Positions 1 to 6,532 of a stretch of 6,569 nt of DNA are shown here, piece after piece. This DNA is from an uncultured Pseudomonadota bacterium (lineage in GTDB: Bacteria > BMS3Abin14). The stretch's first letter is position 1; the number at the start of each line of letters is the position of its first letter. A program made the translations under genes and the position numbers. The notes under the pieces are model-generated. The model was not told where the DNA came from. It did not search any database and worked only from the letters and a program-made list of their open reading frames with translations. The stretch spans positions 1 through 6,569 of the forward strand of contig CAYVSA010000090.1 of the NCBI GenBank assembly GCA_964454175.1. Direction: 5' to 3'.

Positions 1-918
1 GACCCGATCCCGGTGATCCTGCCGCACGTTTCCGGCTCAGATGCCGCCGGCGAGGTAGTTGCCGTAGGTGAAGATGTAAGACACATAAAGGTGGGTGACC
101 GCGTCGTTTCTCACTCCAACATGTCGTGTCGTGTGTGCAGCGCCTGTACAGCCGGCCGAGAGTTCGATTGCGCCAACCGCACCATCTGGGGATTCCAGAC
201 CGGTCCTAACTGGGGAGGCTTTTCCGAGATCACTCATCTACCAGAGGTCAACGTGGTCAAGATCCCCGAAGGGGTCAGCTACGAACAAGCAGCGGCAGCT
301 TCAATGACCCTGTTGACTTCATGGCACATGCTGGTGGGCCGGGCAAAGATCGTCCCGGGACAGACGGTACTTGTGATGGGCGGCGGCTCGGGAGTCGGCA
401 GCTTCGCCATACAGATAGCCAAGCTGTACAACTGCAGTGTCATCGCCACGGCCAGCCCCGACAAGCTGGACAAGTGCATGGAGCTCGGCGCAGACTACGC
501 CGTAGATCACAGGAAAGATGACTGGCATAAGGAAGTACGGGGCATAAGCAAAGAGATCGCCAAGGCAGCCGGCACGGCACCCGGGATCGACGTCTCATTT
601 GATCACATCGGGGAGACCCACTTTAACAAGCAGCTTACGCTGCTGAAGTTCGGCAGTACATTAGTCTCCTGCGGCGCTACCACCGGATATAATGCCAAAG
701 TGGACCTGCGCCACATCTTCTTCAAGGGCATCAACATCCTGGGTTCTACCCAGGGCACCCGGGCAGAGCTGGAAGAGGGTTTCAAGTGGATGGCCAAGGG
801 TAAGATCAAGGCGATTATCGATTCGGTCTACTCCTTCGAGCAGGCCGCCGAAGCGCACACAAAAATGGCTACCGGCAAGGGGCTTTTCGGCAAGATACTG
901 ATGAAGCCAAGCGTCTGA
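1..918 (+). CDS. MDR-superfamily zinc-binding dehydrogenase / quinone oxidoreductase-like protein (5'-truncated by the window edge)
   Basis: Frame is open from base 1 (DPIPVILPHV...) to TGA at 916-918. It has a structural-Zn motif CRVCSAC-x7-C and a Rossmann motif VLVMGGGSGVG. PHVSGSD replaces the GHE catalytic-Zn motif, so it is probably not a classical ADH. Confidence 0.9.
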   Translation, partial: DPIPVILPHVSGSDAAGEVVAVGEDVRHIKVGDRVVSHSNMSCRVCSACTAGREFDCANRTIWGFQTGPNWGGFSEITHLPEVNVVKIPEGVSYEQAAAASMTLLTSWHMLVGRAKIVPGQTVLVMGGGSGVGSFAIQIAKLYNCSVIATASPDKLDKCMELGADYAVDHRKDDWHKEVRGISKEIAKAAGTAPGIDVSFDHIGETHFNKQLTLLKFGSTLVSCGATTGYNAKVDLRHIFFKGINILGSTQGTRAELEEGFKWMAKGKIKAIIDSVYSFEQAAEAHTKMATGKGLFGKILMKPSV

Positions 919-1162: not shown

Positions 1163-1807
1163 TCAGGACCCTTTACCCCATATCTTCTTAAGGTACTGGT
1201 CCCGGCCGGAGCCGAAACGGTAATATTTATACCTGATCGGGTTCCTTTTGTAGTAGTCCTGGTGATAATCCTCTGCCGGGTAGAAGGTTCCAGCCGCGGT
1301 TATTTCGGTCACGATAGGCGCACCGAACCTTCCGGACTCATCCATCACCTTTTTGGACTTCTCGGCCAGTTTTCGCTGCTCCTCGCTGTTATAGAAAATA
1401 CCCGATCTGTACTGACTCCCGACGTCGACGAACTGCCGGTCCGGTGTCGTCGGATTGATCTGGCGCCAGAATACCTCGAGGAGCTTTTCGTAGGACACTT
1501 TTTTCGGATCGTATAACACCTTAACGGCCTCAGCATGCCCGGTACCACCTGCGGAGACCTCCTTGTACGTCGGGTTTTCCTTGGTTCCGCCAATATAGCC
1601 AGAGGTGGTTGAGATGACACCATCGAGTTCATCGAAGGGGTGCTCCATGCACCAGAAACATCCGCCCGCAAAGATAGCTACTTCATGTTTTTCACTGTCC
1701 ATCCCGGGCTTCATCATAACCTCCCTGGCCCCTGCGCTCACTACCGGAAAGATTCCGGCTACCAGTATGAATGCCACAGCGACTAAAAGAATTATTGATT
1801 TTTTCAT
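1163..1807 (-). CDS. msrA: Peptide-methionine (S)-S-oxide reductase MsrA, Cys-type (GCFWC), with signal peptide, 214 aa
   Basis: Motifs FAGGCFWCME, GYIGG..NPTY.EV..G.TGHAEAV, QYRSGIFY and FYPAEDYHQDYY. Start placed at ATG 1807 (MKKSIILLVAVAFILVAG..., with AAGGA/GGTGG upstream). The longer ORF-track start at 1906 overlaps the upstream gene. Confidence 0.95.
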   Translation of the reverse strand: MKKSIILLVAVAFILVAGIFPVVSAGAREVMMKPGMDSEKHEVAIFAGGCFWCMEHPFDELDGVISTTSGYIGGTKENPTYKEVSAGGTGHAEAVKVLYDPKKVSYEKLLEVFWRQINPTTPDRQFVDVGSQYRSGIFYNSEEQRKLAEKSKKVMDESGRFGAPIVTEITAAGTFYPAEDYHQDYYKRNPIRYKYYRFGSGRDQYLKKIWGKGS

Positions 1808-1841: not shown

Positions 1842-2126
1842 TCAGGGCTCACCGGCCGTTCCCCTGTATGTTTTCTCCTGTATGAGGATCTGCTCCATTT
1901 CCTCAACGGTTATCTTCTCCTTGTCAAATGTAACCACGTTTATCTCACGGCGCCCGCTCCAGCCGTTTTTCACATCGATTATACCGGGCCGCCCCTCCAG
2001 GGCAGCTTTTCCCACATCGTATCAGGCCACGTAAAATGTGGCCTTGCCGCTGGCAGCACCAAGGGCAGTGCCCGCAAGCATCAGAAATGCCGCAAAACCA
2101 ATGACAATTAGTTTAATTTTCTTCAT
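1842..2126 (-). CDS. Small exported protein, 94 aa, with in-frame UGA at codon 35; candidate selenoprotein loosely resembling the MsrA N-terminal / HMA-like fold
   Basis: SD AGGAGA (2134-2139) and ATG at 2126. Hand translation: MKKIKLIVIGFAAFLMLAGTALGAASGKATFYVA-U-YDVGKAALEGRPGIIDVKNGWSGRREINVVTFDKEKITVEEMEQILIQEKTYRGTAGEP*. TGA at 2024-2022 is followed by a hairpin at 2006-1988. The ORF fills most of the interval between the two msrA genes. Confidence 0.75.
1988..2006 (-). promoter_or_regulatory. Putative bacterial SECIS hairpin for UGA 2024-2022
   Basis: Minus strand GCUGCCCU-GGA-GGGGCGGC: an 8-bp stem including two G-U pairs, G-containing loop, starting 15 nt after the UGA. Lower pairing GG/CC and AUAC/GUAU is possible. 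Confidence 0.65.
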
Positions 2127-2178: not shown

Positions 2179-3021
2179 TCATCTGCCCTCAAACAGTCTC
2201 AACAGCAATTTGCCTGATCTTTCAGTAAGTCCCAGCTCCGGGAGTTCAGACACCAGCTGATCATAGTTCCCGTTCCCACCCAGGTACCCGTTGACACGCG
2301 CAACTGCAGTTGAGTTAACGAAGTCGGAGATACGGGGATAGATGGAACTTAACTCCTCGAAAATTACCCTGTTGTTCCTGGCCGAGTACTTCTGGTGGTA
2401 ATCCTCGGCCAGATTGAAACCTGTATAGGGCGCAACGTCCGTATAGATCTTTCGATCCAGTTTCTCCGCCAGATCACTTTTAACCATATCGGCTTCCCGC
2501 TCCTGCTTATCGTCGTGAAAGAATATTGCCGACCGGTACTGCACCGACCAGGAACGTTTAGTGGGGCTGTGGCTCGCAAAAAATATTTCCAGGAGCTCTT
2601 TGTAGGTAATTCGGGAGGGATCGAAATCTACCTGAACCGTCTCGGAGTGCCCCCCAAGGCTCCTGTAGGTCGGATTCTTCTTACTGCCACCGGAATAACC
2701 GACCCGGGTTCTGATAACACCGTCAAGGCTCCCGAACCGGGAGTCAGGACCCCAGAATCAGCCCAGGGCAAAGGTTGCGGTCGCGACCGTTTCGTAAACC
2801 CTGGAGTCGATGGCGGGTAAAACATGCTGTTTTTTCAGTGCTTTGGCAGTCATCTGATGGTCCCCTTCCTGCGGTGTCAGAGCAAATACTTTAGGTGTCA
2901 GAGCAAATGTCTGGTTTTGTGATGTCCCGGCTCGTCCGGGGCCCGACTCGAGGGAGTGAGTGAAAAGCAGGCCCGCAAGCGCCATTAGAACTACAACAAG
3001 CTTGACATAAGCTCGGGACAT
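2179..3021 (-). CDS. msrA: Selenocysteine-containing methionine sulfoxide reductase A (Sec-MsrA), 280 aa, Sec88, N-terminal signal/anchor
   Basis: ORFs 2758-3021 and 2179-2544 are in one frame and are joined by reading through TGA 2760-2758: ...TATFALG-U-FWGPDSRFGSLDGVIRTRVGYSGGSKKNPTYRSLGGHSETVQVDFDPSRITYKELLEIFF...QYRSAIFF...LAEDYHQKY...STAVARVNGYLGG. The UGA lies exactly at the catalytic Cys of GCFWG. SD AGGGAG precedes ATG 3021. From memory it closely resembles the Alkaliphilus (Clostridium) oremlandii Sec-MsrA type. Confidence 0.93.
2722..2750 (-). promoter_or_regulatory. Putative bacterial SECIS hairpin for msrA UGA 2760-2758
   Basis: Minus strand GUC-CUGA-CUCCCG-GUU-CGGGAG-CCUU-GAC: a 6-bp upper stem (2743-2729) starting 14 nt after the UGA, a loop beginning with G, and a 3-bp lower stem. 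Confidence 0.75.
2873..2905 (+). repeat. Two copies of the 12-mer GGTGTCAGAGCA (2873-2884, 2894-2905) inside the Sec-msrA 5' coding region
   Basis: Exact matches 21 bp apart. On the coding strand they encode FALTP twice (TFALTPKVFALTPQ). Confidence 0.9.
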
Positions 3022-3120
3022 TTAATCGTCTCCCTGTGGTTTCCTGACTGAATTGATATCCTGGACCACTTCACCGGCAATTGATCCGTAACAGCCGCAT
3101 TAATTGGTGATCTTTTCTGA

Positions 3121-3225: not shown

Positions 3226-3319
3226 GGTGTCAGAGCAAATAAGTTCGTTGGACGTTGGACACTGTTTACGTTGGACCTTGGACATTGGGCATTGGACACT
3301 GTTTTACGGTGTCAGAGCA
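3226..3319 (+). repeat. Composite repeat: 12-mer (3226-3237), six TTGGAC(N)-type heptamers (3248-3298), 12-mer (3308-3319)
   Basis: TTGGACG TTGGACA ctgtttacg TTGGACC TTGGACA TTGGGCA TTGGACA ctgttttac, bracketed by two GGTGTCAGAGCA copies. Confidence 0.85.
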
Positions 3320-3346: not shown

Positions 3347-3446
3347 NNNNNNNNNNNNNNNNNNNNNNNNNNNNNNNNNNNNNNNNNNNNNNNNNNNNNN
3401 NNNNNNNNNNNNNNNNNNNNNNNNNNNNNNNNNNNNNNNNNNNNNN
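3347..3446. other. Scaffold gap (100 N) flanked by an identical 55-bp sequence (3292-3346 = 3447-3501)
   Basis: Seen directly. An exact overlap on both sides of a 100-N gap is typical of an unmerged k-mer overlap. Confidence 0.9.
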
Positions 3447-3502: not shown

Positions 3503-4228
3503 ATGAGCAGAAAGATACTGGTTGTGGAAGACGACAGGGAGTTGGCCGGAATCCTCCAGATGCACCTTGCAGACCTCGGATACAAGGTCGACCTTGCCCA
3601 TGAAGGTGATGCGGGCAAGAAGCTGGCCCTGGAGGGCGATTACGACCTCATCATCCTCGACGTAATGCTGCCTGAAACCGACGGTCTCGACATCTGCAAG
3701 GCCGTGCGCTCGGCCCCGGGATACACTCCTATCCTGATGCTCACATGCCTGTCCTCAGAGGCCGACAAGGTCATCGGCCTGGAACTCGGAGCCGACGACT
3801 ACATGACCAAACCGTTTTCCGTCCGGGAACTCCTGGCAAGGGTGAAGGCTATCCTGCGCCGCAGTGATTCTTTAAAGCAGGGCGGCGGCCCGGAAGACAC
3901 CAGTATCATCCGCCAGGGCGGCATAGAAATAGACCCTGATAAACGTGAAGTTACAGTTGACGATGAAAAGGTGACTTTCACTGCCAAGGAGTTCGATCTT
4001 CTGGCATTCTTTGCCAGAAACCCGGGGAGAGTCTTCACCCGGAGCCAGCTGCTTGACAGTGTCTGGGGTTACGGCTACGAGGGCTACTCCCACACTGTCA
4101 ATTCACACATCAACAACCTGCGCTCCAAGATCGAGCCTGACCGCGAGAATCCGAAATACATAATTACTGTTTGGGGAGTCGGCTACAAATTCGCTGACCT
4201 GCCCGGTGCTAATGATGTATCGGAATAG
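3503..4228 (+). CDS. OmpR/PhoB-family DNA-binding response regulator, 241 aa
   Basis: SD GAGGA (3491-3495) and ATG 3503. Receiver motifs KILVVEDD, LIILDVMLP (phospho-Asp) and GADDYMTKPF. Winged-helix motifs EFDLL, VFTRSQLLDSVWG, LRSKIE and TVWGVGYKF. Confidence 0.95.
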   Translation: MSRKILVVEDDRELAGILQMHLADLGYKVDLAHEGDAGKKLALEGDYDLIILDVMLPETDGLDICKAVRSAPGYTPILMLTCLSSEADKVIGLELGADDYMTKPFSVRELLARVKAILRRSDSLKQGGGPEDTSIIRQGGIEIDPDKREVTVDDEKVTFTAKEFDLLAFFARNPGRVFTRSQLLDSVWGYGYEGYSHTVNSHINNLRSKIEPDRENPKYIITVWGVGYKFADLPGANDVSE

Positions 4229-4238
4229 TAAAGTGTAC

Positions 4239-5705
4239 ATGCACAGAACCCTGTACGGGAAAATAACACTTATCCTCCTGATGCTGTTTTTCGCCATCGC
4301 CGCACTCAACACCGTCTGGACTCTTTTCATAACCCGATCCTACATCGACGAAGCAAACCAGGAGTTAAACCGTAACCTGGCACGCTACCTGGTTACCAGC
4401 GAGTTTTCCGGCCCGGAGGCGGTCATAGACAACGCCAGCCTCAAAAAGAGCTTTGAGATGCTCATGTCCATCAACCCCAACATAGAACTCTACCTTCTCG
4501 ACACCGAAGGCAAAGTAGTCGCCTACTCGGCCCCCCCGGGAAAGAGGATCAAGGAACAGGTCCCCATCGAGCCTGTCAGGACCTACATCTCCGGCAGAAA
4601 GGGCCTGCCCATCAGGAACAAGGATCCGAGAAATCCCGGGAGCCTCAAGGTGTTTTCCGCTGCGCCTATACCTCTGGACGGACCTGCTGTTGGCTACCTT
4701 TACATCATACTTTCCGGCGAAGAGCACGATTCTGTTATGGATCTTCTTCAGACAAGTTACATCGCCAGGCTCAGCATATGGGTATGGGCCTCTGCTCTTT
4801 TGTTTCTCTTCGTCACCGGTCTTGTTCTCTTCAATCATCTGACCAGAAGGCACCGGCAGTTGACCGAAGCGGTGGAGTCCTTCCGCAGGAGCGACTTTCG
4901 AATCCCGGTGACCCTGCCCGAAACCTCAGGCGGAAAGGCAAGTGATGAGATCGACATGCTGGGAGAAGTTTTTTCGGATATGTCCCGGAGGATCATAGAC
5001 CAGATTAGTGACCTGGAAAACTCTGATGTACAGCGTAGAGAGCTCATAAGCAACATCTCCCACGACCTGCGGATGCCTCTTGCCGCCATCCAGGGGCACC
5101 TGGAGACAATTTTACTGAAAGGGAGCAGCCTTGGTGACGGCGAAAAGACCGAGCGGATCGAGATGGCGCTGAAGCAAGCAGAGCGGCTCGGCAGGCTTGT
5201 TTCAGAACTCCTTGAGCTTTCCAGGCTTGAATCACCTGGCCTGGATGTTAAAGCCGAGCCCTTTTCGCTGGCAGAGCTCGTTCAGGATATTGTACAGGAC
5301 TTTAAACCGGCTGCTGCCGAAAAGGGGATCGAACTCACCATTTTACAGGAAAAGATCCCGGCCGTATCTGGTGACATTGGTCTTGTGGAGCGCGCGCTCC
5401 AGAACCTGCTGGACAACTCCATTGGATACACTACCGAGGGCGGCTCGATCACGGTGGGGATGGAAAGCTCGGGGCCGGACGTTCTGGTTAAAGTTACGGA
5501 TGACGGGATCGGCATCAGTCCGGAAGACCTCCCCCATATTTTCGAACGTTTCTACAGGGGCCGGGGAGAATCTGGTAGAGTCGGCAGCGGCCTGGGACTG
5601 GCAATTGCGCGCCGCATCATCCAACTGCACGGATCAGATATCGAGGTCACAAGCACACCGGGTGAGGGCGCGACTTTCACATTTACCCTTCCAGTCAGCT
5701 CATAA
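4239..5705 (+). CDS. Membrane sensor histidine kinase (2 TM, periplasmic domain, HAMP, HisKA, HATPase)
   Basis: Two hydrophobic segments flank a periplasmic domain. HAMP (DEIDMLGEVFSDM), H-box ISHDLRMPL, N-box NLLDNSI, G1 DDGIGI, F-box IFERFY and G2 GSGLGLAI are present. Start is uncertain (ATG 4212, 4215 or 4239). Confidence 0.93.
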   Translation: MHRTLYGKITLILLMLFFAIAALNTVWTLFITRSYIDEANQELNRNLARYLVTSEFSGPEAVIDNASLKKSFEMLMSINPNIELYLLDTEGKVVAYSAPPGKRIKEQVPIEPVRTYISGRKGLPIRNKDPRNPGSLKVFSAAPIPLDGPAVGYLYIILSGEEHDSVMDLLQTSYIARLSIWVWASALLFLFVTGLVLFNHLTRRHRQLTEAVESFRRSDFRIPVTLPETSGGKASDEIDMLGEVFSDMSRRIIDQISDLENSDVQRRELISNISHDLRMPLAAIQGHLETILLKGSSLGDGEKTERIEMALKQAERLGRLVSELLELSRLESPGLDVKAEPFSLAELVQDIVQDFKPAAAEKGIELTILQEKIPAVSGDIGLVERALQNLLDNSIGYTTEGGSITVGMESSGPDVLVKVTDDGIGISPEDLPHIFERFYRGRGESGRVGSGLGLAIARRIIQLHGSDIEVTSTPGEGATFTFTLPVSS

Positions 5706-5896: not shown

Positions 5897-6532
5897 ATGA
5901 CATATCAACCAGAAACTGCTGGTGAGCATATAAAGTTATCAAAACCATCCGATCCTGAAGTAAAGTGCATGTCCAGGCGGCGCTTCCTGTTTCGAACGGG
6001 TCTTTTCACCGGCCTTGCTTTTATACCCGGAGTTGCTTCAATGCTGAAGACGGGTACTGCCCTGGCATCAGGGGGCAGGATAAAAGTCTTTACTTTTAAC
6101 AAGGGGGGCTACGAGATGGTGGACAAAGTCGTTCGCTCGGAAAAAGAGTGGAAAGAGATCCTCACGCCGGCCCAGTACCGTGTGCTGAGAAAGCAGGGCA
6201 CTGAGAGAGCATTTACCGGGGATTACTGGGACAACAAGGAAGAGGGAATATACCGATGCGCGGGTTGCGGGAACGACCTGTTCTCATCGAAGACCAAGTT
6301 CAAGTCGGGGACCGGCTGGCCCAGCTTCTGGGAACCGGTTGCCCGGGAGAACATCACCCTGAGAGAGGATTCCAGCTTCTTCACACGGCGTACCGAGGTG
6401 TTGTGCGCCAGATGTGACTCGCACCAGGGCCACGTTTTCGACGACGGGCCCAAGCCCACCGGCCTGCGTTACTGCATCAACTCGGTGTCCCTCGCCTTTG
6501 TTCAGACGGCAAAGATTGAAAAATCACAGTAA
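5897..6532 (+). CDS. msrB: Peptide-methionine (R)-S-oxide reductase MsrB, Zn-binding type, with twin-arginine signal
   Basis: Motifs QYRVLRKQGTERAFTG, CAGC and CARC (Zn), GTGWPSF, GHVFDDGP.PTGLRYCINS (catalytic Cys). Tat-like SRRRFL plus hydrophobic region ending in ALA. SD-like AAGGGGG precedes ATG 5897; an alternative start is ATG 5969. Confidence 0.95.
   Translation: MTYQPETAGEHIKLSKPSDPEVKCMSRRRFLFRTGLFTGLAFIPGVASMLKTGTALASGGRIKVFTFNKGGYEMVDKVVRSEKEWKEILTPAQYRVLRKQGTERAFTGDYWDNKEEGIYRCAGCGNDLFSSKTKFKSGTGWPSFWEPVARENITLREDSSFFTRRTEVLCARCDSHQGHVFDDGPKPTGLRYCINSVSLAFVQTAKIEKSQ

Follow-up and report, generated by a model that had tools for sequence, protein, structure and literature searches.

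A selenocysteine-containing MsrA with a predicted export signal and a probable second start codon in an uncultured bacterium

Introduction

The closest described relative of the protein considered here is the selenocysteine-containing methionine sulfoxide reductase A (Sec-MsrA) of Clostridium/Alkaliphilus oremlandii OhILAs (CoMsrA; PDB 4LWJ, 4U66), which has 209 residues, with selenocysteine (Sec) at position 16. It is a selenoenzyme of the 1-Cys type, for which glutaredoxin, and not thioredoxin, is the reductant (PMC4479559), and its active site includes G15-G19, Y47, E55, Q89, Y90, H137, and Y140 (PMC4333827). Export is not mentioned in the available text of either source. Sec-MsrA is included in a catalogue of 119 selenoprotein families (PMC13188914), and has so far been catalogued and characterised as a soluble, signal-less enzyme. 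No paper on an exported Sec-MsrA was found in a literature search of mostly open-access main texts, and the main text of BSepDB makes no mention of MsrA.

Systems for repairing methionine in the bacterial envelope have been described. MsrP is a molybdo-enzyme fed by MsrQ. In Escherichia coli, the two-component system YedVW (HypVW/HprSR) is found by these envelope methionine repair genes, and its sensor has Met residues in the periplasmic loop, for which a methionine switch has been proposed (bioRxiv 10.1101/2021.09.09.459708). In Neisseria, the one gene pilB specifies a periplasmic form and a cytoplasmic form, the latter by way of an internal AUG (PMC6210582). PilB is a Cys-based fusion of thioredoxin, MsrA, and MsrB, with a reductant domain of its own that is fed by DsbD. 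The available text of a 2026 review of bacterial N-terminal proteoforms (PMC13515050) mentions neither Msr nor PilB.

The present analysis concerned a stretch of 6,569 nucleotides from an uncultured Pseudomonadota bacterium (contig CAYVSA010000090.1), which is referred to in its whole length as the window. An earlier note, made from the sequence alone, had proposed that it encodes a Cys-free Sec-MsrA with an N-terminal signal or anchor, split in two by standard gene calling.

Results

The proposed gene occupies positions 2179-3021 of the minus strand, and comprises 280 codons plus a stop codon, with no Cys codons. The standard ORF list (table 11) does cut it into two pieces, 2758-3021 and 2179-2544, and translation with TGA as selenocysteine (U) gives 280 residues with the motif ATFALG-U88-FWG and, as had been stated, no Cys. 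The TGA (2758-2760, minus strand) lies at the catalytic position, where U88 equals C16 of CoMsrA U16C, and is almost certainly read as selenocysteine.

Profile matches to MsrA were above their cut-offs (PF01625, E 2e-42, 145 bits against 23.7; TIGR00401, 130 bits against 108). The closest solved structures by sequence were the CoMsrA chains 4U66/4LWJ (phmmer, E 8e-53, residues 79-271), and the predicted model (pLDDT 80.7) matched 4LWJ in Foldseek with E 2e-23 and a TM-score of 0.88 on the target. The catalytic domain (2368-2781, minus strand) is followed by a helical domain of the CoMsrA type (2182-2373, minus strand), to which PF20939 gave a match under its cut-off (E 0.16) and which the 4U66/4LWJ alignment covers as far as residue 271. 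Around the shared GUFWG site, the active-site residues of CoMsrA map to the window protein with equal spacing, at a constant offset of 72, and G87-G91, Y119, E127, Q161, Y162, H209, and Y212 are invariant in a nine-sequence alignment (A1). A resolving Cys is absent from both proteins. The oremlandii-type assignment of the earlier note is upheld in fold, active-site residues, and C-terminal domain, and there is very little doubt that the protein is a Sec-MsrA. By sequence comparison it belongs to the selenoenzymes of the CoMsrA type, with methionine-S-sulfoxide reduction as its predicted activity. It differs from CoMsrA in 72 additional N-terminal residues, which hold the predicted signal, a disordered linker, and the putative second start.

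Homologs were compared in a set of 90 loci (the window gene, nine relatives, and the best 80 of at least 588 confirmed stretches); because this sample was ranked by likeness to the query, counts from it are not population frequencies. The UGA aligns with the Cys of homologs, the active-site codon being TGA at 76 loci and a Cys codon at 14 (best 80 of at least 588). Among 120 database homologs, the catalytic position was Cys in 95, Trp in 21, and absent in four. The Trp entries (in the range P0004-P0121) are probably cases of UGA read as Trp by gene callers, which mishandle this clade. Named carriers among the matches listed were mostly anaerobic lineages. One Sec-MsrA ortholog (L016, on contig C241 of genome G005) stays in frame for only about 120 residues of the core, and its helical domain is encoded in a different frame; this is either an assembly error or a broken gene. 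A miscalled TGC or TGT at 2758-2760, raised as a possibility in the earlier note, found no support in a public contig of run X1, which was letter-identical to the window over 2546-2871 but is not independent, as X1 may be the source sample. None of the run contigs matching the gene reaches as far as the upstream ATG (3021), and no RNA data set was among the runs listed for the sequence.

The genome (2.17 Mb, 98.5% complete) encodes the machinery for selenocysteine, so that the absence of selB and selC, which had been named as grounds for refutation, does not apply: selB (364 bits), selD (342 bits), and tRNA-Sec (74 bits) were all found above cut-offs, and selD has an in-frame TGA of its own. 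Of selA, only the 3' end (the last 40 profile positions) is in the assembly, cut by a contig edge directly upstream of selB. The SECIS stem-loop lies at 2729-2743 (minus strand), +18 to +32 from the U of the UGA, with its loop at +23 to +27. Folded alone, it showed no excess of stability over shuffles (z -0.26 and -0.10), and the support for the hairpin that had been noticed after the UGA is comparative rather than from single-sequence folding. At least five of the six stem pairs were possible in 57 of the 76 homologs with TGA, and in none of the 14 with Cys (90-locus set, best 80 of at least 588). The stem codons are free to vary in Cys forms and near-fixed in Sec forms; across 75 distinct Sec sequences, TCC/GCC was found in 73, CGG/CAG in 73, and GGG in 71, with two-sided changes at stem pairs 18-32 and 19-31.

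Signals and lipoboxes were called with the authors' own hydrophobicity and lipobox heuristics, a signal requiring a 13-residue Kyte-Doolittle mean of at least 1.9, no inner charge, and a start codon within 40 codons. The long reading frame begins at ATG 3021, with a Shine-Dalgarno (SD) site at 3030-3035 (minus strand; -8.2 kcal/mol), and specifies a predicted signal peptide or membrane anchor (2962-3021, minus strand) that has a basic N-region, a hydrophobic core of 15 residues (V6-F20; 3006-2962; heuristic score 3.04), and no lipobox. The predicted model places a helix at residues 3-19, over the signal region, and the low-confidence residues 21-64 (2830-2961, minus strand; pLDDT <50) probably form a disordered linker. 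An equivalent hydrophobic stretch was present in nine of nine TGA-keeping relatives, each with a possible start 84-106 codons upstream; SD sites at that start were strong in most kin, and reached -10 kcal/mol or stronger in five of the eight relatives scored. The signal or anchor is therefore borne out as a prediction, and on these sequence features it is highly probable that the long form is exported. BamA is present in the genome, so the cell has a periplasm.

The earlier view that such a signal is unusual did not hold. In the 90-locus set (best 80 of at least 588), 53 of the 76 loci with Sec carried one, as did 1 of the 14 with Cys, and signal-bearing Sec homologs among the matches listed span about ten phyla, their labels being Thermodesulfobacteriota, Myxococcota, Chloroflexota, Planctomycetota, Bacillota, Nitrospirota, Acidobacteriota, Actinomycetota, Calditrichota, and Synergistota. 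A signal was also present in 56 of 95 Cys-type database proteins, and predicted export therefore belongs to the whole helical-domain clade, not to selenium alone.

Further down the same frame, an internal SD sequence (2869-2862) precedes ATG 2853 (M57; the whole site 2851-2869, minus strand; -7.9 kcal/mol), 31 codons before the Sec codon and at the place where signal-less homologs start. A true start at 2853 had been thought to speak against export, but this ATG has its own ribosome-binding site and recurs clade-wide together with the upstream start, and for that reason both starts are probably used; use of 2853 itself is considered likely from its sequence context. In many homologs the linker has the sequence K-E-x-x-x-M, which is what an SD followed by an ATG looks like in translation. 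With a threshold of -4.5 kcal/mol or stronger, an in-frame linker ATG with an SD was present in 33 of 54 signal-bearing genes, against 9.4 ± 2.5 (maximum 17) in 300 codon shuffles, and in 31 of the 54 within a band of -37 to -26 codons from the catalytic residue, against 2.7 ± 1.6 (maximum 8), counts (best 80 of at least 588) whose significance the shuffles overstate, because band and threshold were chosen after a first look and the homologs are related. Internal ATG positions peaked at -33 and -31 (best 80 of at least 588). Of 39 short database homologs, 25 have their first residue at exactly -33 from the catalytic residue, and some of the short proteins may have been cut off at the internal ATG by gene callers. 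At loci with an in-frame stop close upstream, the starts include -26, -28, -31, -33, and -34. Each of the three msr genes of the window has an internal site of -7.9 kcal/mol or stronger just before its catalytic domain; in the genome background, sites of -7 or stronger occurred in 9 of the 173 genes classed as signal-like and in 33 of the 556 classed as cytoplasmic-like.

The linker of all eight same-family orthologs (L008-L014, L016) has a C-x-L/V-P-like motif that places a Cys 40-47 residues ahead of Sec, and a linker Cys is also found at L051, L079, L092, and L096. An interpretation of the Cys of these kin as part of a lipobox was rejected, as it lies at least 15 residues past the h-region. 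Because it is upstream of the internal start (-29 to -32, where present), it would be confined to the long form. Of the 53 Sec forms with a signal (best 80 of at least 588), 24 had no Cys past the signal; in overlapping classes, a Cys was found in the linker of 13 (in one of them probably a missed lipobox), in the tail of 11, and in the core of 8. As far as these sequences indicate, the Cys-free state is particular to the window lineage, and the linker Cys or C-terminal tail Cys of other forms is a candidate tethered resolving Cys.

At the place of the C-x-L-P Cys of its kin, the window protein has two FALTP stretches, which derive from a 12-mer present there in two copies (2873-2884 and 2894-2905; 2873-2905, plus strand). 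This word, GGTGTCAGAGCA, has 45 copies in the genome against 0.46 expected, often paired at 21-25 bases with A/T-rich flanks, and occurs nine times in the window (984, 1008, 1142, 2873, 2894, 3226, 3308, 3463, and 6549). It was found in 13 of 15 kin at 1-27 copies, the reversed control giving one match in all. Misassembly of the linker copies was rejected, as a contig of run X2 (98% identical) spans both. Other over-represented short tandem words are TGGACGTTGGAC, TGGACATTGGAC, GAAACCAGAAAC, and GTTCCAGGTTCC, with 41-46 genome copies each; a run of the TGGACGTTGGAC type lies at about 3248-3300, in the intergenic region between msrA and the regulator gene, beside an assembly gap (3347-3446).

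The Sec-MsrA gene is likely the first of an operon that continues with a small selenoprotein candidate and a Cys-type MsrA. The former, encoded by the next gene downstream (1842-2126, minus strand; TGA 2024-2022), has 94 residues with a signal and the motif ATFYVA-U-YD, and resembles the N-terminal half of MsrA. It had no match in Pfam and only a weak one to NF041383, and a metagenome search with it returned one locus, an ordinary Cys-MsrA. Four of 15 kin have the gene, all with the TGA kept, and in every case it lies immediately before a Cys-MsrA. A role as dedicated partner of Sec-MsrA is not favoured, because the small gene was at none of 89 homolog loci (among the matches listed) and is linked to Cys-MsrA in four of four kin. 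The Cys-type MsrA (GCFWC; 1163-1807, minus strand) also has a signal, and its internal SD before ATG 1714 (-11.7 kcal/mol) is the strongest among the 173 signal-like genes; a strong internal SD is found in four of five Cys-MsrAs beside the small gene. MsrB (5897-6532, plus strand) has a twin-arginine-like signal and an internal SD before ATG 6116 (-11.0 kcal/mol), with an equivalent internal ATG in 8 of 11 MsrBs of the family that were parsed, the window's included (15 loci fetched).

Divergent from the Sec-MsrA gene are genes for an OmpR-type regulator (3503-4228, plus strand) and a sensor kinase (about 4239-5705, plus strand) with a periplasmic FEMLM motif (Met codons 4458 and 4464). The four closest kinase orthologs (52-53% identity) are all beside msr genes and share FE[M/T]LM with the window kinase, while three more distant paralogs that are not linked to msr genes lack it, a fourth having been left out as mis-extracted, and genome G001 has the gene order of the window (Sec-msrA / regulator / kinase / msrB). 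By analogy with YedV, FEMLM (4458-4466) is a candidate methionine-oxidation switch of the sensor. A promoter scan of the window was uninformative (5 sites against 2.3 ± 1.5 expected). At the left end of the window, a zinc-binding dehydrogenase gene (1-918, plus strand) is followed by a two-way terminator-like hairpin (948-975), which could end the msr operon too; this dehydrogenase showed no linkage with msr genes at the 89 homolog loci (among the matches listed).

Discussion

The sequence comparisons favour, with moderate confidence, one Sec-MsrA gene with two starts, giving a long exported or anchored periplasmic form and a short cytoplasmic form. Ribosomes starting at 3021 would produce a 280-residue precursor, routed through the Sec export pathway, and those starting at 2853 a signal-less enzyme of 224 residues. 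Going by the chemistry of CoMsrA, Sec88 would attack methionine-S-sulfoxide, Met would be released, and Sec88 would be left oxidised; as there is no resolving Cys, it must then be reduced from outside. The same construction, with two forms each, is likely for the other two Msr enzymes of the locus, Cys-MsrA and MsrB, and the two-component system would act over the msr genes, with a sensor that may detect periplasmic Met oxidation. The recharging of the envelope form, possibly by an exported thioredoxin-fold protein, is the least certain step.

It is possible, though unlikely, that Sec-MsrA is only exported, the internal SD and ATG being a relic of an ancestral cytoplasmic start that yields little protein, left over once a signal cassette came to precede it. 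In keeping with this, the signals differ in type, a lipobox occurring in 20 of 54 signal-bearing genes (best 80 of at least 588) and the others being plain or twin-arginine-like, and the signal label is scattered, changing 19 times on a quick-search tree that fits one origin of the signal as well as many (85 of 90 rows, five short-tail rows left out; 14 of 82 branches strongly supported). The internal site is also weak or absent in four of eight same-family orthologs (L009, L011, L012, L013), and in L014 it lies at -20 instead. A relic is harder to reconcile with the fixed distance of the site, which holds in about ten phyla and in the three unrelated msr genes of the window, or with SD strength above synonymous expectation: with the amino acids held fixed, the 36 genes whose linker has an ATG between -39 and -26 gave -7.74 kcal/mol, against -5.07 ± 0.42 for synonymous sequences, a strength reached by none of 400 resamplings, and 30 of the 36 were individually stronger. 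The window gene's own SD, by contrast, does not exceed its synonymous null (-7.9 against -9.4 kcal/mol; 79% of resamples as strong).

The two-start reading suggests exported and cytoplasmic isoforms from one gene, as in Neisseria PilB, and it is only in these predicted starts that the window system resembles PilB. Its enzymes are separate genes, its MsrA uses Sec, and no DsbD was found; there is no thioredoxin-like fusion, and PF02683 and PF13386 were without a match in the genome.

An exported Sec-MsrA would be expected to have a periplasmic reductant, and none was identified through DsbD/CcdA or MsrQ-type profiles. Profiles for DsbD/CcdA (PF02683, PF13386), MsrQ-type (PF01794), and GshB-type (PF02955) proteins had no match in the 98.5% complete genome, while control genomes were matched by each, and for the glutaredoxin/GSH route of CoMsrA no envelope counterpart is apparent in this genome. 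PF02683 matched 5 of 15 kin and was not found in the single-contig complete genome G001, which has a predicted-exported Sec-MsrA. No reductant gene recurred beside the 89 homolog loci, where the commonest functional neighbour was an MsrB-like sequence (13 of 89; both among the matches listed). These absences, together with the mostly anaerobic lineages of the named carriers, would suit an envelope enzyme with no partner, recharged by small thiols or by the sulfide of an anoxic habitat, a mode of supply that should be well tolerated by a selenium centre. This is nevertheless doubtful: it is purely inferential, CoMsrA uses glutaredoxin (PMC4479559), and the genome has genes for a number of exported proteins of the thioredoxin fold, UxxC types among them, which must themselves receive electrons in some way.

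Among these proteins, one on contig C56 (L130:3946-4728, minus strand) was ranked first as a candidate because of the analogy with the glutaredoxin route. It is a lipoprotein-like relative of PDO/AhpF-N with UxxC (TIGR02187, 160 bits against a cut-off of 185), and has the look of an exported version of a normally cytoplasmic oxidoreductase. A UxxC DsbA-like protein adjoining a DsbC-like one is encoded on C8, a further UxxC DsbA-like protein on C10, and ResA/TlpA-like exported proteins on C21, C68, and C89. Recharging of the envelope form by an exported thioredoxin-fold protein, with this Sec-containing, PDO-like lipoprotein as first candidate at low odds, is put forward tentatively.

That Sec-MsrA is purely cytoplasmic, starting at 2853 with the upstream frame unused or its hydrophobic helix non-exporting, is improbable. 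It is true that ATG 2853 is preceded by a good SD and coincides with the point where signal-less homologs begin. The linker also accommodates a genomic repeat twice over and, in a close strain, two amino-acid changes, and no trans-membrane electron conduit was found (PF02683, PF13386, PF01794). However, the SD of ATG 3021 is equally good (-8.2), the upstream frame is open and hydrophobic in all nine relatives, with an SD of -10 or stronger in five of eight, and the 20 lipoboxes of homologs (best 80 of at least 588) are hard to obtain by chance. A pseudogene or sequencing error, with the TGA a true stop or a miscalled TGC/TGT, might be read into the incomplete selA and a hairpin no stabler alone than its shuffles, but is extremely improbable given TGA at 76 of 90 loci (best 80 of at least 588), a hairpin confined to TGA forms, the identical X1 contig, and the presence of selB, selD, and tRNA-Sec.

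The regulatory genes recall YedVW-MsrPQ of E. coli, in which a two-component system likewise stands by envelope methionine repair genes and the periplasmic loop of the sensor carries Met residues. The systems differ in their effectors, which in the window are MsrA and MsrB, and HprR was not the top NCBIfam match of the window regulator. A wider proposal, of an Msr system shared across anaerobes, with twin-start enzymes, a Met-switch sensor, and an envelope Sec-MsrA recharged by a selenium relay or sulfide without DsbD, CcdA, or MsrQ, is speculative and rated as unlikely.

Judged from the genomes compared, the exported and probably two-start form of Sec-MsrA appears to be common, although it was not found in the literature searched. 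Three predicted-exported Msr enzymes with no recognisable trans-membrane conduit make the question of where the envelope obtains its reducing power directly testable. If most members of the clade are exported, and many also have a cytoplasmic isoform, Sec-MsrA would represent a further route of envelope methionine repair in anaerobes, beside MsrPQ and the PilB/DsbD type, and alternative starts would be a clade-wide means of serving two compartments.
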